From the NCBI GenBank assembly GCA_964522115.1, contig CAZFSX010000001.1, positions 1-58,671 on the forward strand: a stretch of 58,671 nucleotides of DNA, in the 5' to 3' direction. Below the pieces are notes generated by a model. It had not been told where the DNA came from. It saw only the letters and a program-made list of their open reading frames with translations, and searched no databases. Within the stretch, counting starts at the first letter, position 1. Each line of letters opens with the position of its first letter. This DNA comes from an uncultured Pseudobdellovibrionaceae bacterium. GTDB lineage: Bacteria > Bdellovibrionota > Bdellovibrionia > Bdellovibrionales > Bdellovibrionaceae. The position numbers and the translations under genes were made by a program. This document shows positions 1,941 to 58,671 of the stretch, piece after piece.

Positions 1941-2069
1941 TTAGTCTTTGAATAGTTCTTTTGCAGAACGAGTAGTTCCGGCACTTCTTTGTGCGGCTTT
2001 GCGTTTGCGGCCAGATGTAGCTTTTTTGCGCTCGCGACGATATTCAGTACGTTTTGTTTTTGAAGCCAT
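1941..2069 (-). CDS. small, highly basic protein (42 aa), unannotated
   Basis: It is below the track's size cut-off. On the minus strand GGAGGAAGTC is followed by ATG (2069), and the ORF reads MASKTKRTEYRRERKKATSGRKRKAAQRSAGTTRSAKELFKD then TAA (1943-1941). It lies 40 nt downstream of the OMP gene on the same strand. Confidence 0.45.
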   Translation of the reverse strand: MASKTKRTEYRRERKKATSGRKRKAAQRSAGTTRSAKELFKD

Positions 2070-2109
2070 GACTTCCTCCTAAAGATACGAGTGGAAACCA
2101 AGACAGCTA

Positions 2110-2988
2110 TCAAAATGGAATCACCAAGTCAACGGAATGTCTTGCAACCAGCTGACTTGGGGTCTTTGAACTTAAATATCCATAGTGAACACCAAATTTT
2201 GGACCATGAAATCCAAATCCTGCACCATATTCTTCCTTCGAGTTTTCTGGCGACCAGGCCGCCCCCATGCGCAGATTCAAGAAGCTATTTAGGTAATGCT
2301 CAAGCCCCGCACGGTAGGTATTGATCGCATCGGAATTTTCAATATCCATACGAAGACGAAAAACAGATTGAAAAACCATTGCAGATCCAAGCGCATAAAG
2401 CGGGGATTGACGCAGATGCTTTGGTATTTTTGACGACTCCGTCAAAATATTTTCAGCCACGAAGCCTATTCCCCAGTTGTCGCTGACAGCATAGATACCG
2501 CCCAAGCGCAGGTTCGATTGACTGTAATTTACGGCTTCGTAAATATCTGTTTTTTGCAAATATCCACCAATTCCAAAGTAAGTTTTTTCTGCCACTCTAT
2601 TCGCAAAACTGATTTCTACTAAACTTTGACCTGAAGTTTCTTTTTCAAGACTGGTTGTTTTTTTGCGATACTTGATAGCCGCTGGCAGCCAATTATCTTC
2701 CGTTGCATCGATCAGGTTCACTTGAAGCTCTTGGACCTGTTGTTCTTGCTGTAAGTCAGACATCTGTTTATAGGCACTCAGGGACGACGAAAAAAAGAAC
2801 CCTCTCATTGCAGCAATTGAAGCTGGATTTGAGGATGGCCCGTCGACAATATCAACACTGGCTCGACCAGCTCCTGCTAAACTGCTGGTCACGGCACCAC
2901 CGTTTTCCATCGCTTGAACGGGATGCAAAATAAAAATACCGCTTAAAAGTGAAAAACAAAAAAGAAAAGAATGGATATATTTCTTCAT
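2110..2988 (-). CDS. outer-membrane beta-barrel protein (hypothetical)
   Basis: It has a signal peptide (MKKYIHSFLFCFSLLSGIFILHPVQA), alternating hydrophobic/polar strands rich in G/Y/S, and a C-terminal aromatic residue (..VDLVIPF), as expected for a BAM substrate. Confidence 0.6.
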   Translation of the reverse strand: MKKYIHSFLFCFSLLSGIFILHPVQAMENGGAVTSSLAGAGRASVDIVDGPSSNPASIAAMRGFFFSSSLSAYKQMSDLQQEQQVQELQVNLIDATEDNWLPAAIKYRKKTTSLEKETSGQSLVEISFANRVAEKTYFGIGGYLQKTDIYEAVNYSQSNLRLGGIYAVSDNWGIGFVAENILTESSKIPKHLRQSPLYALGSAMVFQSVFRLRMDIENSDAINTYRAGLEHYLNSFLNLRMGAAWSPENSKEEYGAGFGFHGPKFGVHYGYLSSKTPSQLVARHSVDLVIPF

Positions 2989-3047
2989 GACCTTAAGGAT
3001 CCATCGGGCAAAGAAGGCTTGTCAATGGACAAGCCTTTCCACCGACT

Positions 3048-4289
3048 TTATTTTTCGAACTTGTTAAATACTTGATCGCAAGATCCGCTCATTTTCATTG
3101 TTGAAAGTGACTTCTGAGAAGGAATAAATGGCCATGGGTTTGTATCAGAAGAAGGATTTCTGTCGGCCCTCATCAAAAAGTCACCCTTTTGTAGCATCTG
3201 CTGAAACTGATGTTCATAAAAAATAAACAGGCCTGTTCTAAGCCGTGCTTCTTTCATTTCACGCATAAACATGAGAGCAGCTTGCAAGGAAATCTGAGTC
3301 AGATTCTTATAGCTTTGAATTTCTGCCTCAAGCAGACTGCGTGGAATATCCTCTAAGCCAATCTTAAGTTGATTTGTTTTATCTACAGAAATCCGCTTCG
3401 AACCTTTGGAAATTTCGTCTTGGTAAAACTGAATGCTAGACTTCAAAAAGGGAAACGAAAGAGCTGCCACTCGGATAAGATCCGCTTTTGACATGGAATC
3501 TTTTTCTTGCGCAACTGATTCTGAAAAAGTTTCGTAAATACTATGAAATGGATTCGCATCATGCTCCATAATAGAATCGCTCATTGCCATTGGTTTTTTT
3601 AACAACAAGATTCGCGTCTTTTCATCGAAACCGTTTGCAATTTTAAAGAATCGAGACAAGACACCCGAGTCTGCCTTAGAAACTTGAGTCCAAATTCGAG
3701 CACCCCATAGCGATGGATCTCGAGAATTTCTTGCATCCGAAAGAAACTGTAAATTTCTAGGTAAATCATTCAAAACTTCATTGATAAAAAAGTGAGTTCC
3801 AAGTTGCTGATCGACCTGCAAAAGATATTCGAAGCATAAGATTAAGTTATCCGACACAGAGAGCGCTTTTCCGTCTGCACGTCGATTCATTATTTTATTT
3901 TCAAATCGCTTTTTTAAAAACTCCTGTATCGCAAGAATACTTTCAGAAGGTACTCCTTGAAAAAGATGAATGTATTTTAAAACAGGTTCAAGATCAGATT
4001 CTGCCGCAGAGTTAAGAGAGACACTTCGACCTTCACTTTCATATTCCAAAAGAGCCAAAGGCAAAGAGTCATGCCAAAATTGATAAGGCTGCCACTCTAA
4101 AGGAACGGACAAGCCAACTCCTCGCCGAACAGCATTGACCATTTGATGCAACTTATTCGAGGGAGAATTCTGAGTTTGATCTAAATTAACTTGAGTGACA
4201 ACAGAGCCCGCCACCCCTGGAAGCGACATCAGCACATGGAGCACAAAAAAGCCGCAAATAAGTTTCCATCTTTGATGCAAAGACATCAT
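3048..4289 (-). CDS. exported hypothetical protein
   Basis: A 413-aa ORF with an N-terminal signal-like segment (ICGFFVLHVLMSLPGVAGS). I recognise no family motif. Confidence 0.5.
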   Translation of the reverse strand: MMSLHQRWKLICGFFVLHVLMSLPGVAGSVVTQVNLDQTQNSPSNKLHQMVNAVRRGVGLSVPLEWQPYQFWHDSLPLALLEYESEGRSVSLNSAAESDLEPVLKYIHLFQGVPSESILAIQEFLKKRFENKIMNRRADGKALSVSDNLILCFEYLLQVDQQLGTHFFINEVLNDLPRNLQFLSDARNSRDPSLWGARIWTQVSKADSGVLSRFFKIANGFDEKTRILLLKKPMAMSDSIMEHDANPFHSIYETFSESVAQEKDSMSKADLIRVAALSFPFLKSSIQFYQDEISKGSKRISVDKTNQLKIGLEDIPRSLLEAEIQSYKNLTQISLQAALMFMREMKEARLRTGLFIFYEHQFQQMLQKGDFLMRADRNPSSDTNPWPFIPSQKSLSTMKMSGSCDQVFNKFEK

Positions 4290-52477: not shown

Positions 52478-53803
52478 TTACAAAATTCGTCGCATTAATT
52501 TGAAGGCTTGAAGATGATGAAACGCCTGCTGCAGTTGAAAGTCGTTTTTTAAAATTTCTTCTTTCGCAGAAGGTTTTTCTGACTTTTTTGAATCTCCAAT
52601 TTTTTCTTTTTCACCCAGCAAATGCCCTGATAAATCTTTTTCTCGAGAGGCATCTTTTTTATCTTTTTTGACTTCAATTTCACGATCTTCAATTTCTATA
52701 TCGGGTTTGATACCTTCCGCCTGGATAGAAATACCACTGGGTGTGTAATAGCGTGCCACAGTAAGTTTAAGTCCGGCCCCATCACCCAATTTCACGATCG
52801 ATTGAACGGATCCCTTTCCAAAGCTTCGCTCTCCGACAATTAAAGCACGTTTATTATCCTGCAAGGCTCCTGCAACAATTTCACTGGCACTGGCGGAGTG
52901 TTCATTAATAAGAACAACTAAAGGAAGTTTTGGATAGGCAGCCTTCTTTGTTGCCATGGCAACCTCTTTATCATTTTTATTGCGTCCGATCGTGCTGACA
53001 ATCACGCCCTCGGGAAGAAATAAGTCACTGACTTTGATGGCTTGATCCAAAAGCCCACCTGGGTTTTTCCTCAAGTCCAAAATAAGCCCCTTCATTTCAG
53101 GATATTTTTTTTGATGGTTTTGCAAAGCCTTTTCTAAGTCTTTCGAAGTTCCTTCGATAAAGCTAGTAATCTTCACATATGCAAATCCATCTTCTAAATC
53201 TGTGTATTTCACACTGTGAATTTTAACGACACCGCGAACGATGGGGATTTCAATGGGCTTATCTTCTTCCTCATTGCGAATCACTTTTAAAGTAATTTTA
53301 GCACCCTTTTTCCCACGCATCATCTGAGATGCTTCAACAAGACTCAATCCCTTTGTTGATTTGCCATCTATGGCGATTATTTTATCTCCAGATTTAACTC
53401 CAGCATTGTAGGCGGGAGTATCTTCGATGGGCGCAATGACAGTTAAATAGCCATTTTGAACAGAAATTTCCACACCTAGCCCACCAAATTCACCGTTCGT
53501 TTCATTTTCAAAGTCTCTCATAATTTCAGGTGGTAAATAATTAGTGTGTGGATCTAATTCGCGCATCATTCCACGAATAGCGCCATTCAGAAGTTTTTTT
53601 GTATCTACTTCTTCGACATAGTATTGTTGAATCATGTTCAACACTTTAGAAAAATTTTGAATTTCAGCATAACGTTCATCGACTGCGGCGGAGGCTGCCG
53701 CGAAAGATTTTGTCCATTTGAATTGAAAATGTTTGTGAATAAAAAGTCCTGCAGCAATAGCAAGTAAGCACAAAACCAATTTTATCATTCGCTGTTGGTT
53801 CAT
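52478..53803 (-). CDS. ctpA: carboxy-terminal processing protease (S41, PDZ-containing)
   Basis: ATG 53803 forms an ATGA overlap with the upstream ftsX/envC stop. It has a PDZ segment (AYNAGVKSGDKIIAIDG), the catalytic Ser context GERSFGKGSVQ, and Lys in GIKPDI. Confidence 0.9.
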   Translation of the reverse strand: MNQQRMIKLVLCLLAIAAGLFIHKHFQFKWTKSFAAASAAVDERYAEIQNFSKVLNMIQQYYVEEVDTKKLLNGAIRGMMRELDPHTNYLPPEIMRDFENETNGEFGGLGVEISVQNGYLTVIAPIEDTPAYNAGVKSGDKIIAIDGKSTKGLSLVEASQMMRGKKGAKITLKVIRNEEEDKPIEIPIVRGVVKIHSVKYTDLEDGFAYVKITSFIEGTSKDLEKALQNHQKKYPEMKGLILDLRKNPGGLLDQAIKVSDLFLPEGVIVSTIGRNKNDKEVAMATKKAAYPKLPLVVLINEHSASASEIVAGALQDNKRALIVGERSFGKGSVQSIVKLGDGAGLKLTVARYYTPSGISIQAEGIKPDIEIEDREIEVKKDKKDASREKDLSGHLLGEKEKIGDSKKSEKPSAKEEILKNDFQLQQAFHHLQAFKLMRRIL

Positions 53804-55839
53804 AAAGAGGGTCCTTTCAACCATGACTTGGGATCATAGGGTTCTGAAAAATGTCGAATTTCAAAATACATTCCTTGCGTTCCATGAATTTCCGAAAAAC
53901 CCGTGCTGGCAATCTTTTGCTGGGGTTGAACTTTTTCTCCAAGACTGACCACGGCATCTTTGGTTCCAGCATAGACGGTGTAGTAATGATCACCATGATC
54001 TAAGACGACGACTTGTCCCCATCCATCCATCGATCCTTGGTATGCAACTTTTCCACTGGCAACTGCAAACACTGTTTGATCGTGATCTGTCGCAAAGAAC
54101 AAGCCTTTGTGTGCAAATGCAATTTTTAAAAAAGGGTCCCTTTGAACACCAAATCCCTGGTATATCTTAGCATTCAATGGATATGGCAATTGTCCCTTTA
54201 AATCTGAAAAGGCGGACTCAGACAGAAGGTCAACCCATCCTTGATCCGTGCGTTGATCCCGGTTTAATTTTTCTTTTAACACGGCCAGTTTTTCTTCCGT
54301 CATCAAGGCACTGTCTTTGATTTTTTTAAGTAATTTCTTTTTCAGCTGATTTTGTTCGGCTAAACGACTTTCTGTTCGAAGATGTTGTTTTTGTAGCTTT
54401 TGAAGTTTTGCCACCCGAGACGCAAGTTTTTTCTTTTTCCCATCCAATTCTGCAAACGTCGATCGATAATTACGAATCAATTCCAAATCATTGCGCATCA
54501 GATGCGAAAGAATGCGCACATTTCGATCTAAATCGTTCATCTTATCCGATGACAAAATGATTTTTAACACTCCCTGCTGAGAGACACGATAAATGGATCG
54601 AACGCGCTTCTTTAGAAAATCTTTTTGACCGCTGAGTTGCTGATCCAGCTGACTTATTTTCCCATTGATATCTTCGATGCTGACTTCAAGGGACTGCGAC
54701 TCTTGTTCCAGCATGCTACGTTCTTGTTCCGCGCGACGTTGTTTTCGATTCAGTTCAAACAAAGCCCCAAGAAGACGGCGTTGTTCTTGCTCTTGCTGCA
54801 GAAGCTTTTGTTTTGTTTTTAGATAGTGCTCCTTTAAATTTCCAGAATTCGCAGCCAAAGAAGAAGAATTCGCAGCCAACAAACTTGCAAGACACATCCA
54901 TGGTAACCATAAAGGCACTGCCCATGTTGCTGTTGTTGCCGTGGACCATCCCGTATTGATCGAACGAACACGCAAATATGCTATACTGATTGTGACCAGG
55001 ACGGCCGCAGATAGAAATGACAGTAATTGTTTTGAATTTAAAAACTGAACCTGTTTAGCAATGCTAACCAACGCCAGATTTTCACGCATTTCCTGTGCTA
55101 GCAAATCAAAAACAACGTAATCCAAAACCATGGCAAGGCAAGAGGCAAGAATCGACAAAAATAGTGCTTCAAAAAGAAAGGGGCCACGGATCATCCAACG
55201 GCCGGCACCAATTATTTCTAAGACTTCCAACTCTTCCCTTCGTTGATCAATAGAAGTTTGCAATGAATTCGAAATCACAAAAAACACACCCGCCACCAAA
55301 AGAATTGAAATCAGTCCACCTAAACTTTGAAAGCCTTTCACAAATTGCGCATATCTTTGGATCCAGTCCTGACCGTAGGTCACTTCATCCACCCAAGTGC
55401 TTTGCTTCACTTGTTCAGCTAAATTCGCAAGAAGCACAGATCTTTGATCAAAGGGAATGTCTTCCTTCAAACGCACTTCTAAGCTGGCGGGAATGAGTTT
55501 CAGGACGTCGACATCTTTAATTAAATCGCCAGCGATGTGATTCATCTGATTTTGAAAGGACCGAATGGAATCTTCTTGCGAAATAAATCCAATATTTTGC
55601 ACATTTGGATTTTCTTGAATATTTTGAATCAAATCCTGAACATCATCATGCTTTGCCGTTGAAACCAGATAAGCAGTTAGTTGAAATTCATTGCCCCAAA
55701 ATGTGACCAATCTTGAAAAATTTTGAGAAAGTAAAAAGAAAAACAAAATCACAGACAGCGATGCTGTCATCACAATCAGACTTGTTAATTGCAAACCTGA
55801 ATGATGTTTCCATGTCTTCACAAGATGTCGCAAAATCAT
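53800..55839 (-). CDS. ftsX: FtsX permease fused in frame to an EnvC-like coiled-coil / degenerate LytM (M23) domain
   Basis: Residues 1-290 have FtsX topology: TM1, a periplasmic loop, then 3 TMs. Residues 307-325 form an extra hydrophobic segment (AVPLWLPWMCLASLLAA). Residues 335-530 are a Gln/Lys/Glu coiled coil. Residues 560-679 are an M23 fold with degraded metal motifs. There is no stop codon anywhere in the 679 codons. Confidence 0.8.
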   Translation of the reverse strand: MILRHLVKTWKHHSGLQLTSLIVMTASLSVILFFFLLSQNFSRLVTFWGNEFQLTAYLVSTAKHDDVQDLIQNIQENPNVQNIGFISQEDSIRSFQNQMNHIAGDLIKDVDVLKLIPASLEVRLKEDIPFDQRSVLLANLAEQVKQSTWVDEVTYGQDWIQRYAQFVKGFQSLGGLISILLVAGVFFVISNSLQTSIDQRREELEVLEIIGAGRWMIRGPFLFEALFLSILASCLAMVLDYVVFDLLAQEMRENLALVSIAKQVQFLNSKQLLSFLSAAVLVTISIAYLRVRSINTGWSTATTATWAVPLWLPWMCLASLLAANSSSLAANSGNLKEHYLKTKQKLLQQEQEQRRLLGALFELNRKQRRAEQERSMLEQESQSLEVSIEDINGKISQLDQQLSGQKDFLKKRVRSIYRVSQQGVLKIILSSDKMNDLDRNVRILSHLMRNDLELIRNYRSTFAELDGKKKKLASRVAKLQKLQKQHLRTESRLAEQNQLKKKLLKKIKDSALMTEEKLAVLKEKLNRDQRTDQGWVDLLSESAFSDLKGQLPYPLNAKIYQGFGVQRDPFLKIAFAHKGLFFATDHDQTVFAVASGKVAYQGSMDGWGQVVVLDHGDHYYTVYAGTKDAVVSLGEKVQPQQKIASTGFSEIHGTQGMYFEIRHFSEPYDPKSWLKGPSL

Positions 55840-55922: not shown

Positions 55923-56576
55923 CTAGACCTTTAAAAGGCCATCTTTAATTTCTAAGGTTCTTTTTTTTCGACGTTGTACCATCGAGTGATCATGGGTTGC
56001 GATGAAGACAGTTGTCCCCTGGCTGGAGACCTTTTCAAATAAATCCATAATGTCTTCACTTAATTGTGGATCCAAGTTTCCTGTGGGCTCATCCGCGATC
56101 AGCAATTTTGGTTGATGAACAATGGCACGAGCAATGGCGGTACGTTTCTGTTCTCCACCCGAGACAAAATCAGGGTACTGATCTGCCTTGCTGGCAAGCC
56201 CCACTTTTTCTAAAATTTGCAGGGACTTTGCCATAGCTTCTTTGGAAGAGACCCCTTGAATGGTTAAGGGTAAGGCAACATTTTCTTGCAAAGTACGGTC
56301 CTTCAAAAGTTTGAAGTCTTGAAAGACGATCCCCACATTACGACGAAACTTCACCAGATCCTTTGCGGAAATATTTTGAAGATCAAACCCAACGACCTTC
56401 AAGGTTCCACTTGTGGGTCGATCAAAGGCAGACAACATTTTAAACAAAGTTGTTTTCCCCGATCCCGATGGACCTGTTAAATAAACGAATTCGCCTTGAT
56501 CAATATGAAGATCAATATTTTTCAAGGCCTGAATCTGCCCTGGATAAACTTTGTAAACGTGAGACATCTCAATCAT
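55923..56576 (-). CDS. ftsE: cell-division ABC transporter ATP-binding protein FtsE
   Basis: Motifs: LTGPSGSGKTTL, VSGGEQKRTAIARA, LLIADEPTGNLD. It is 217 aa and lies directly upstream of ftsX. Confidence 0.95.
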   Translation of the reverse strand: MIEMSHVYKVYPGQIQALKNIDLHIDQGEFVYLTGPSGSGKTTLFKMLSAFDRPTSGTLKVVGFDLQNISAKDLVKFRRNVGIVFQDFKLLKDRTLQENVALPLTIQGVSSKEAMAKSLQILEKVGLASKADQYPDFVSGGEQKRTAIARAIVHQPKLLIADEPTGNLDPQLSEDIMDLFEKVSSQGTTVFIATHDHSMVQRRKKRTLEIKDGLLKV

Positions 56577-56866
56577 TCTTTCAGCTTAAGTCGATTTTTT
56601 GTTCAGAACAAAACCCGCGAAGTCCAGCTGGGTGGTTCAGGATCTTCGGCTGGGGAAGTAAGGGGGGGTATGGCATTTTTTTCAAACTATATGAGTGTCC
56701 GAAATCCAGACATCCTTCAAAAATTCTTTAAAATTCTCTTCAAATTCCCTATATTGAATTTAATTCTAATATTTGGATATTTAGTTATTTCCGAAAGTCT
56801 TTTTTTGCGTTGAAAGCAATAATATTTCTTCAATATTTATGCCCAGTTTGAATATTTCATATGAGT

Positions 56867-56895
56867 TTGATAATTATTCTCTGCACGCATAATTT
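56867..56895 (+). promoter_or_regulatory. candidate sigma70-type promoter for the small ORF
   Basis: TTGATA (56867-72), a 17-nt spacer, then TAATTT (56890-95). This would place a transcription start about 15-20 nt upstream of the GGAG/ATG of the 22-codon ORF. It rests on sequence pattern only. Confidence 0.25.
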
Positions 56896-56919
56896 TAATG
56901 CCTGCTGAAAGGAGATTTT

Positions 56920-56988
56920 ATGGCATGGAGTTCTGGAAAAATTAAAACAACTAAATCAACTGTAGTTAAAATTGTTGTTGAGCAATAA
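56920..56988 (+). CDS. 22-codon small ORF (leader peptide or small secreted/signalling peptide)
   Basis: AAAGGAG sits 6 nt before ATG 56920. The translation is MAWSSGKIKTTKSTVVKIVVEQ, followed by TAA. It is below the track's size threshold. Confidence 0.4.
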   Translation: MAWSSGKIKTTKSTVVKIVVEQ

Positions 56989-57016
56989 AAAATGGGGCCT
57001 TTGTGCCCCATTTTTT
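56986..57016 (+). terminator. intrinsic terminator immediately after the small ORF
   Basis: TAAAAAATGGGGC-CTTTGT-GCCCCATTTTTT. The GC-rich stem starts 3-4 nt after the stop codon and a T6 tract follows it. Only 18 nt separate the T-tract from the next ATG. Confidence 0.7.
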
Positions 57017-57034
57017 GATTGAAAGTGAGTATTT

Positions 57035-58671
57035 ATGCAAAAACAATCAAATATATTTCTTTTACTAAGTTTATTTTTTTATCTCTTTACACAGGTTTTT
57101 TTTATTTATGCATCCATGGGACATCTCACGATGATGGACCAAGGCATTAAAAGTATTTCTCTTTTATTATTACTCCAGGCCTGTGGTGCTTTGATTTCAA
57201 GACTTATTAAAAATAATTTATTCAGTAAAAGAATCTATTGGATTTCAGCTAGTTTGTTTTATTCTTTTATTCCTCTATTTTTTTTGAACAATAAAAACTT
57301 CTCTAACACTCTAACTATTTTTACTTTTATCTTATATTTCTTTCTTAGTTCAAACCTATCACTTTATGTACTGAATAAACTTGGTTCTATTTCAAATCCA
57401 GATGAATATATTCTGCCAAAAAAAATTACTCTTGTAAGTACCACTTCTTACTTATTGGGTACTGCCATTGGACCATATATAGGTCTAGAAAAAAACTCAG
57501 AAACCATTGTTGCAATTTCGATGCTATCTTCATTTGTTGGTTTTTTGCTTCTAATTGCCGCCCTTAATTCAGAAACTAACGTGAAAGAACAATTGACCGA
57601 TAGAAGTTCGTACAAAAATATTCATTCAGACAGTTTTTTCTATATTTTTATTAATTTTTTGCTTTGGGTAACGTTTGGCGCACTACAAGTAATCGAAATT
57701 CCAATTTTGAAAGAACGTTTCAATTTTGATTCTCATACTATTTCACTTTTATTTTCATTAGCTCTCATTTCTAACATTATTTTTTCATCATTTTTTCACA
57801 AATTTTTCGGGAAAGAGTTTATTTTAAATTCAAAGCATTTGGCTCTAATACTTCTGATAACAATTTTAACCGTAATTTTTTATGGTGTTAATACGTTCAA
57901 GTTTTTTAACTGGCCAATAATGATTACAATCGGAGTCCTAAATGGCCTTTATCTTATTTGTTTAAACGGCTTGGTATTTCGCATTAGAATTGAATCGCAA
58001 AGATTAGTATTATTTCAGAATTTAAAAGTGGCAGAGTATTTCGGAACTATCTGTGGCTGCTTGCTGGCTGCATTATTTTCAAAATTGGACGGTAGTATAC
58101 TCATTTTATCTATTGGAATAATTGTCATTACATTTTTTTTAATTTTTCTTTTTTTACATTTTCGAAAAATTGCTTTTTTTGTTTTGCCTATAATTACAAT
58201 TATTTCTTACACAAAGCATTCCTATGCTAATCCAATCCGACACGACTTCAATGTTGTTATTCCAAGTTTACCAAAAAGCTGTCTACCAACGGAGGCGGGA
58301 TTAACACCATCAGCTCTAGTTTTTAATCAAATTTTTAATCGACTATATGAGTATACTGAACAAGATCTCGTAGAACCTGTACTTATCGCAAAACATGTTT
58401 GGTCGCAAAATGGTACCCATTTAAATCTTACCCTAAAGAAGGGAATATTTTTTTCAGACGGCACTGAATTAACTTCAAAGGATGTTTATTATAGCATAAC
58501 TAATTCTTTAAAACTTCTTAAAGGTGGTGCAGGATGGGCCTTTGGTAATATCAAGGGATATGACCAATTTAAGAAATCGTTAAACCTCAGTCACCTTTCT
58601 GGATTTAAAGTTATTGATAAATATAATATTTCCTTCACTTTTATGGTGCCCGATAAGGCTTTCATTTCAAT
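57035..58671 (+). CDS. MFS-like 12-TM permease fused via a 13th TM to a family-5 (peptide/nickel-type) solute-binding domain; 3'-truncated by the window edge
   Basis: It is absent from the supplied track because it has no stop before the window end. My manual translation from ATG 57035 gives 545 sense codons with no stop. About 12 hydrophobic helices are arranged 6+6 around a polar central loop (residues 178-200). They are followed by HFRK-IAFFVLPIITIISY-TKHSYA (signal-anchor-like), then ..LVFNQIFNRLYEY..DLVEPVLIAKHVWSQNGTHLNLTLKKGIFFSDGTELTSKDVYYSI.., the classic N-terminal pattern of SBP_bac_5 proteins. Confidence 0.75.
   Translation, partial: MQKQSNIFLLLSLFFYLFTQVFFIYASMGHLTMMDQGIKSISLLLLLQACGALISRLIKNNLFSKRIYWISASLFYSFIPLFFLNNKNFSNTLTIFTFILYFFLSSNLSLYVLNKLGSISNPDEYILPKKITLVSTTSYLLGTAIGPYIGLEKNSETIVAISMLSSFVGFLLLIAALNSETNVKEQLTDRSSYKNIHSDSFFYIFINFLLWVTFGALQVIEIPILKERFNFDSHTISLLFSLALISNIIFSSFFHKFFGKEFILNSKHLALILLITILTVIFYGVNTFKFFNWPIMITIGVLNGLYLICLNGLVFRIRIESQRLVLFQNLKVAEYFGTICGCLLAALFSKLDGSILILSIGIIVITFFLIFLFLHFRKIAFFVLPIITIISYTKHSYANPIRHDFNVVIPSLPKSCLPTEAGLTPSALVFNQIFNRLYEYTEQDLVEPVLIAKHVWSQNGTHLNLTLKKGIFFSDGTELTSKDVYYSITNSLKLLKGGAGWAFGNIKGYDQFKKSLNLSHLSGFKVIDKYNISFTFMVPDKAFIS

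Follow-up and report, generated by a model that had tools for sequence, protein, structure and literature searches.

Translation-dependent attenuators that work without an antiterminator are best known from the pyrBI and pyrE operons of Escherichia coli. There, a translated upstream open reading frame (ORF; the pyrL leader and the upstream rph ORF, respectively) reaches an intrinsic terminator, and a closely following ribosome blocks the hairpin. The pyrL frame extends across the hairpin, and uridine triphosphate (UTP) is sensed at U-rich pause sites. An even smaller arrangement, attributed to Jaurin and coworkers (1981), is the growth-rate control attenuator of E. coli ampC, in which a ribosome at a tiny ORF before the hairpin was reportedly proposed to block it. 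In trpL, hisL, thrL, ilvL, pheL and leuL, a short ORF with its own ribosome-binding site and an intrinsic terminator also precede the first structural gene, and clusters of cognate codons and mutually exclusive hairpins define the mechanism. The effect of terminator position was quantified in E. coli by Li et al. (NAR 2016; PMC4824070): the terminator tR2 terminated less than 10% of transcription 5 bp after a stop codon versus about 90% at 28 bp, and did so only with coupled translation. Where the terminator stood in the first 100 bp of the coding region it remained effective, because the ribosome lags behind the polymerase, and pyrBI is cited there as the natural example of a short leader whose pause sites enforce coupling (PMC4824070). 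Here, we describe a 22-codon mini-ORF followed by a terminator-like hairpin on contig CAZFSX010000001.1 of an uncultured Pseudobdellovibrionaceae bacterium. The window analyzed is the entire 58.7-kb contig (58,671 nt) of a genome of 3.04 Mb with 40.8% G+C and 515 contigs.

The two elements occupy a 458-nt region that separates the divergent ftsE gene (55923-56576, minus strand) from a plus-strand ORF at 57035. We tentatively propose that the mini-ORF and the hairpin form an attenuator of the ribosome-occlusion (coupling) type in front of a strain-specific sensory operon, a reading that the features described below make plausible, if short of probable. The mechanism would resemble that of the pyrBI/pyrE and ampC attenuators. 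From the arrangement, we infer a promoter, translation of the mini-ORF, termination at the hairpin and an effect of the ribosome on it.

The anatomy was read directly from the window (Table 1). An AAGGAG motif is followed by a 5-nt spacer (ATTTT) and an ATG at 56920-56922, and the 22-codon frame closes with TAA at 56986-56988. This agrees with the first-pass annotation, which had noted a good ribosome-binding site and start codon for this peptide. A 7-bp GC-rich stem (AUGGGGC/GCCCCAU) begins 3 nt after the stop codon, within the 3 to 4 nt given there, and is followed by a T6 tract (57011-57016). Pairing of the adjoining A6 and U6 runs lengthens the stem to a perfect 12 bp, in which 56987-56998 pairs with 57005-57016 around the loop CUUUGU (56999-57004). 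Its GC core comprises 56994-56998 and 57005-57009. The extended stem thus includes part of the mini-ORF stop codon, which is 5 nt away from the core. The hairpin is symmetric (A6-UGGGGC/GCCCCA-U6) and thus has the shape of a bidirectional terminator.

To place the hairpin among its counterparts, we used genome-wide statistics based on crude whole-genome gene calls and on our own scan for hairpins with a GC stem plus a T-tract. A separate terminator scan missed the hairpin, presumably because the A/U pairs draw the T-tract into the stem; our scan recovered it as one of approximately 160 strand-specific terminator-like hairpins in the genome. Its folding energy was -19.3 kcal/mol compared with (-8.4 ± 2.5) kcal/mol for shuffled sequences (z = -4.35), and none of the 200 shuffles folded as well. 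As many as 101 of the approximately 160 hairpins are located within 300 nt after a co-directional stop codon and represent the ordinary terminators of the organism; most of these share the symmetric A-tract/T-tract shape. A search of the region against Rfam at E ≤ 10 yielded a best match of 22 bits (E = 0.73), which the terminator alone explains, and no match in the whole window reached the gathering threshold. The hairpin is a bona fide terminator-type structure. No long co-directional gene ends at the hairpin (56994-57009) on either strand. With -8.7 kcal/mol, its GC core is weaker than 87% of the gene-end terminators of the genome, which makes some basal leak likely. At 5 nt, the stop-to-stem distance falls within the lowest 8% of gene-terminator distances (median, 36 nt).

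Several measures suggest that the mini-ORF is more than a chance reading frame. The motif AAGGAG-N4-9-ATG occurs at 347 sites in the genome, 72% of which coincide with starts or in-frame candidate starts of long ORFs. It also precedes 34 other ORFs of fewer than 60 codons; 18 of them were inspected, and none was seen to be followed by a terminator. An ATG-initiated ORF of 10-60 codons with a 6-mer ribosome-binding site that ends no more than 12 nt upstream was found for only 4 × 10^-4 of random intergenic positions of this genome, which corresponds to about 0.02-0.07 expected arrangements of this kind over all terminator-like hairpins. The arrangement is thus non-random. The codon log-odds score of the mini-ORF was 0.215 per codon, compared with 0.198 ± 0.117 in real genes and 0.014 ± 0.133 in intergenic ORFs of comparable length. 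This codon usage equals the gene average and ranks in the top 6% of intergenic ORFs. On the basis of the motif statistics, the chance estimate and the codon log-odds, both the ribosome-binding site and the 22-codon ORF are probably functional. We also considered the ORF as the remnant of the C-terminus of a decayed gene and discarded this idea: the stop-to-stop frame has only 29 codons and no homolog, and both its ribosome-binding site and its ATG are perfect.

Transcription of the downstream gene appears to depend on passage through the hairpin. The T-tract and the ATG at 57035 are separated by 18 nt. The first-pass annotation had reported no promoter-like hexamers in this gap and had argued that read-through is apparently required. 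A scan of the plus strand revealed no sigma-70-like hexamer pair between 56838 and 57018. Since there is no promoter-like site between the hairpin and the ATG at 57035, transcripts of the downstream gene would have to read through the hairpin. By eye, neither a sigma-54 site nor a leaderless promoter nor a site for FliA, whose Bdellovibrio motif is TTAAG-N16-CCGATA (PMC3627812), fits in or after the hairpin. Upstream of the mini-ORF, the scan identified a promoter-like hexamer pair, TTGAAA-16-AATATT, at 56810-56837, and a second candidate, TTGAAT-15-GATAAT, was recognized by eye at 56848-56874. The AT-rich stretch 56658-56908 presumably holds the promoter for both the leader and the operon. 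Five promoter-like sites were found in the region, compared with 3.5 expected.

Table 1. Features in and around the ftsE-57035 intergenic region of the window.
Feature	Position	Strand	Basis and remarks
5' untranslated region of ftsE	56577..56657	-	Near-identical in all FtsE-cluster contigs (alignments); ends at the recombination breakpoint beside a poly-G run
Cassette-specific AT-rich upstream region	56658..56908	+	G+C fraction falls from ~0.40 to 0.27-0.34; only in strains with the MFS-SBP5 gene; presumed promoter of leader and operon
Shine-Dalgarno sequence AAGGAG	56909..56914	+	5 nt 5' of the ATG
22-codon ORF MAWSSGKIKTTKSTVVKIVVEQ plus TAA	56920..56988	+	Proposed translated leader ORF; codon log-odds, chance estimate
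Intrinsic terminator (putative attenuator)	56987..57016	+	Fold compared with shuffles, genome-wide hairpin scan
Weak Shine-Dalgarno-like GAAAGUGAG of the downstream gene	57021..57029	+	5 nt before the ATG at 57035, read from the sequence
5' part of the MFS-like/SBP5 fusion gene	57035..58671	+	Runs off the contig; 856 aa in full; first gene of the operon

The gene at 57035 encodes a protein of 856 amino acids (aa) in which an MFS-like membrane domain with 12 helices is fused to a family-5 solute-binding domain (SBP5). The gene caller placed the start of a near-identical protein (P0001, from a Logan contig) 27 codons further downstream, at 57116 (M28, 829 aa). A full ortholog from Bdellovibrio sp. 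28-41-41 (L004/L063) and two MFS-only homologs (L007, L008), however, align from residue 1 with the form that starts at 57035. Transmembrane helices 1 and 2 and a basic loop are present in all four aligned N-termini, in which L10, L11 and F14 are invariant, and a start at 57116 would delete helix 1 of the 6+6 helix layout. Given the N-terminal alignment, the invariant residues and helix 1, the true start is probably 57035 and the called one wrong. The aligned N-termini thus back the transporter ATG that had been placed 18 nt after the T-tract.

The stop codon of the MFS-SBP5 gene overlaps the start of a gene for a tandem S-adenosylmethionine (SAM)-dependent methyltransferase, which is followed by a histidine-kinase gene. 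The same three genes adjoin in Bdellovibrio sp. 28-41-41, at 28-30% identity (L006 410-5132 vs. L063 2623-8182). This gene content suggests that the operon is a sensory module rather than a nutrient transporter. The earlier label "peptide-binding transporter" is thus better replaced by an MFS-like/SBP5 fusion that heads a sensory-looking methyltransferase and histidine-kinase operon. In two other Bdellovibrionota genomes, L007 and L008, MFS-like homologs have histidine-kinase or response-regulator genes as neighbors, and L008 encodes the SBP5 part in a gene of its own.

To examine how the leader is distributed, we compared the contigs that carry members of the 90%-identity FtsE cluster. The sister strains are near-identical up to about position 56657, that is, throughout the ~80 nt of the ftsE 5' untranslated region, and then split abruptly at about 56658, by the poly-G run, into three alleles. 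The first allele (the window, L006 and L094) continues with 377 nt of AT-rich DNA containing the mini-ORF and the terminator, followed by the MFS-SBP5, methyltransferase and kinase genes; L093 matches this allele as far as it goes, ending near 56805, before the mini-ORF. In the second allele (L088 and L095), the methyltransferase gene stands directly after the breakpoint, followed in L088 by the kinase gene, and the MFS-SBP5 gene, the mini-ORF and the terminator are all missing. The third allele (L091, L092 and L096) carries unrelated sequence beyond the breakpoint, including a gene for a 343-aa protein, and neither mini-ORF nor terminator. This three-allele distribution assigns the mini-ORF and the terminator, together with the MFS-SBP5 gene, to one cassette and not to ftsE or to the methyltransferase-kinase pair. 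We conclude that the leader is co-inherited with the MFS-SBP5 gene, the first gene of the operon, as one cassette. Cassette and operon have a G+C content of 27-36%, compared with 40.8% for the genome.

According to our proposal, transcription would start in the AT-rich region upstream of 56909, and each operon transcript would have to cross the terminator at 56987-57016. Because the ORF is short, the polymerase would normally reach the T-tract ahead of the first ribosome. The hairpin would then form, and a transcript of approximately 100-170 nt, depending on the start site, would be released. Termination would be the default, since the T-tract ends 97 nt after the start codon. If the first ribosome followed the polymerase closely, owing to fast initiation or to a slowed or paused polymerase, it would occupy the last codons or the stop codon. 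Its leading edge (approximately +12 to +15 nt) would cover the whole 5' arm at 56987-56998, so that no hairpin could form and the polymerase would enter the operon. Control would thus consist of direct ribosome occlusion and kinetic coupling, involving neither alternative hairpins nor amino-acid sensing.

Counted from the first base of the P-site codon, the footprint of a ribosome spans approximately -12 to +15 nt. With these general dimensions, a ribosome whose A site holds the stop codon or Gln22 would extend over 56987 to about 56998-57000 and hence cover the entire 5' arm. By the same estimate, a ribosome stalled on a Val or Ile codon, with its P site no further downstream than 56977, would reach the A-tract, not the GC core. 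The notion that a terminating ribosome would physically cover the 5' arm, already expressed in the first-pass annotation, therefore fits the geometry, and it is in line with the repression by coupled translation of an E. coli terminator located ~5 bp after a stop codon (PMC4824070). Stalling at Val or Ile as the trigger does not fit. With its 69 nt, the mini-ORF falls into the short-coding-region regime of that study, in which the ribosome lags (PMC4824070).

Compared with pyrBI and pyrE, the locus shares the translated upstream ORF that reaches a terminator, the proposed block of the hairpin by a close ribosome and the lack of an antiterminator. The stop-to-stem distance of 0-5 nt is within the range in which termination was experimentally repressed (PMC4824070). 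In contrast to pyrL, the ORF stops before the stem and no pause element was found, and the genes downstream encode a membrane sensor, a methyltransferase and a kinase instead of enzymes of nucleotide synthesis. With the ampC case, the likeness lies in a ribosome on a mini-ORF directly before a terminator, and read-through would likewise scale with translational capacity. The ampC mini-ORF, however, is essentially AUG-UAA and its hairpin also ends the upstream frd operon, whereas the present ORF is 22 codons long and its terminator serves no upstream gene. The resemblance to trpL, hisL and their kin extends beyond the short ORF with its ribosome-binding site and terminator to a peptide that is somewhat rich in Thr, Val and Ile. 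The locus nevertheless departs from classical trp/his attenuators in two defining respects, exclusive hairpins and cognate codon clusters: it has no regulatory-codon runs and no 1:2, 2:3 and 3:4 hairpins, and no biosynthesis genes follow.

Structure predictions for the leader were otherwise unremarkable. When the 3' arm was removed or blocked, the folds left the 5' arm essentially unpaired, and no antiterminator emerged. No significant pause hairpin or hairpin sequestering a ribosome-binding site was detected, the other leader hairpins scoring z values of -0.1 to -1.0 against shuffles. Of the two possibilities raised in the first-pass annotation, a translation-coupled attenuator or a nascent-peptide sensor, the occlusion geometry fits the coupling; sensing finds neither a regulatory-codon run (no tandem run of three or more) nor an antiterminator nor a pause hairpin to act through.

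A number of observations weigh against ribosome occlusion. No pause hairpin or other significant structure was found in the leader that would let the ribosome catch the polymerase within ~100 nt. In this genome, 13 further terminators stand no more than 60 nt ahead of a co-directional start, these starts being longest-ORF guesses, so that a terminator near a start codon is not in itself regulatory. The four available leader copies are 100% identical and therefore offer no readable substitution pattern. In Bdellovibrio sp. 28-41-41, the 205-nt region upstream of the orthologous operon has no comparable ORF, terminator or sequence similarity. Finally, a non-sigma-70 promoter may overlap the hairpin.

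Some of these points serve another view, in which the ORF is incidental, its ribosome-binding site and ATG having arisen by chance or playing no part, and the hairpin terminates a small RNA (sRNA) made from the leader or acts as a constitutive partial terminator or insulator that damps an AT-rich operon acquired from elsewhere. No structure of the leader other than the terminator is statistically significant, promoter-like sites are common in AT-rich DNA, terminators stand just upstream of starts elsewhere in the genome, and the peptide comes without conservation evidence. Very many windows were scanned initially, and some chance pairs of an ORF and a terminator are to be expected. We nevertheless regard this view as somewhat unlikely: the joint arrangement is rare per position and over all terminator-like hairpins, the codon usage is gene-like, and no Rfam family was matched. 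A peptide gene followed by a leaky terminator is the usual layout of highly expressed precursor or pheromone genes ahead of processing or transport genes, and the mini-ORF might accordingly be a stand-alone gene that yields an abundant short mRNA and a minority of read-through transcripts, with no regulatory role for the ribosome. The strong ribosome-binding site, the gene-like codons and the terminator right after the stop codon would all fit, the weak GC core makes leakiness plausible, and the restriction of the mini-ORF to strains with the MFS-SBP5 gene would link it to an exporter or receptor gene. Moreover, the first ribosome on a 69-nt ORF is expected to lag, and the terminated RNA would then be mainly mRNA (PMC4824070). 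The peptide itself, however, speaks against this. Its only hits in 150 genomes of the family were at chance level (E 0.3-2), the two matches that were inspected being dismissed; it matched nothing in Pfam or NCBIfam, had no paralog in the genome and no similarity to the downstream protein, and showed by eye no signal peptide, double-glycine motif or Cys-rich core. In addition, the orthologous operon lacks such a peptide, and sister strains hold the methyltransferase and kinase genes without it. Lantibiotic structural genes and pqqA share the small ORF, the terminator right after it and the following genes for a membrane protein and modifying-type enzymes. They differ in that no recognizable precursor family, leader motif or dedicated maturation enzyme exists here and in that sister strains and the distant orthologous operon have the methyltransferase and kinase genes but no such peptide. 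We therefore consider a stand-alone peptide gene unlikely. As to whether a similar mini-ORF and hairpin precede homologous transporters, a check suggested in the first-pass annotation, the sole orthologous operon has no leader and the peptide no homolog.

Two further readings give the peptide a specific function, and we hold both to be very improbable. In one, an arrest or amino-acid-sensing leader peptide would keep the terminator open by halting a ribosome close to the 3' end of the ORF. Possible triggers are a small molecule or an antibiotic that acts on the nascent chain, a shortage of Thr, Val, Ile or Gln, and slow release at UAA. Thr, Val and Ile make up 9 of 21 residues of the peptide (P = 0.006) and 7 of the last 12 (P = 0.002), both uncorrected and for a grouping chosen post hoc, and the downstream gene encodes an MFS-like domain. 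The C-terminal KIVV-E may resemble the IAVV-E stall site of ErmAL1, and KIK would correspond to the "+x+" macrolide-arrest motif. Lys-rich motifs are, however, expected by chance in AT-rich DNA, and the amino-acid bias forms no tandem run of three or more. A stall at Val or Ile would reach the A-tract only, the core being occluded only with Gln22 or the stop codon in the A site; there is no antiterminator, and the operon is sensory, neither biosynthetic nor recognizably a resistance operon. In the other, the 22-residue peptide would be an exported signal that leaves through the MFS-like half, is re-captured by the periplasmic SBP5 half and is reported to the co-transcribed histidine kinase. 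This scenario, a long shot, would mean that a strain-specific cassette turns a methyltransferase-kinase module into a peptide self-signaling circuit in a Bdellovibrio-like predator.

If ribosome occlusion operates at this locus, the leader would be a non-enterobacterial example of the simplest ribosome-controlled attenuation, in which a terminator is blocked by the ribosome finishing a leader ORF without any alternative RNA structure. The attenuated operon would be sensory rather than biosynthetic and would belong to the little-studied Bdellovibrionota, and the case would indicate that such a leader can travel with its gene in a strain-variable cassette. With ~100-170 nt, the leader would be a compact part; as a single-species case, its general importance appears modest.

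The wider distribution of the locus is narrow. The DNA of the region had no match in 41 relatives or in plasmids. Searches that covered the family and the phylum, 5.8 billion proteins, metagenome contigs and GTDB genomes detected no close relative of the operon and only one true ortholog of the downstream protein. Neither the peptide nor the region has a paralog or repeat within the genome, which rules out a mobile repeat. The organism is Bdellovibrio-like: its FtsE protein is at most 71% identical to that of any other FtsE cluster, and those relatives for which a source is named bear the label Bdellovibrio or Pseudobdellovibrionaceae.

The remaining observations concern the neighboring genes. 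In the operon, the tandem methyltransferase gene is a mosaic: between L006 (2977-4368) and L088 (476-1867), the N-terminal half is divergent and the C-terminal half nearly identical by eye (86% overall), which indicates recombination inside the gene. In L008 (~2840-3020, minus strand), a direct repeat of ~20 nt, CTTTCATGAGATCA[T/C]GAAGA, occurs twice, approximately 160 nt apart, within the 400-nt gap between the kinase/response-regulator gene and the MFS-like homolog.

A hot spot of strain variation borders the ftsE 5' untranslated region on its upstream side (56577-56670). The G-run comprises 7 G in the window and 8 G in L006 and is interrupted in L088 and L095. A 47-codon hydrophobic ORF (56670-56813) starts exactly at the cassette breakpoint after this run and thus consists of cassette-specific DNA. 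We also considered a deletion scar in L088, and rejected it: the likeness between the region upstream of its methyltransferase gene (ATGGGGCTTT) and the hairpin did not exceed that of shuffled sequences. Immediately upstream of the ftsE start codon, L088 (JGI 3300056624 contig Ga0558117_06227) carries a group II intron in the same orientation (~2060-3995), recognized by an RVT_1 ORF (2584-3903), an Rfam RF02005 match of 93.9 bits (2110-2337), the 5' sequence GTGCG and, close to the 3' end, a hairpin resembling domain V.

A scan for tRNA and tmRNA genes found none. The 5' untranslated region of ftsE contains, at 56597-56613, the perfect palindrome TTTTGTTC-A-GAACAAAA, which is kept in most sister strains, L088 and L096 being the exceptions; a dimeric regulator of ftsEX could use it as its operator. 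The neighboring FtsX/coiled-coil/M23-peptidase fusion (679 aa; 53800-55839 of the window) has equal length in every sister-strain contig with a complete gene, and in the relative G009 the FtsX ORF encodes a separate protein of 297 aa.

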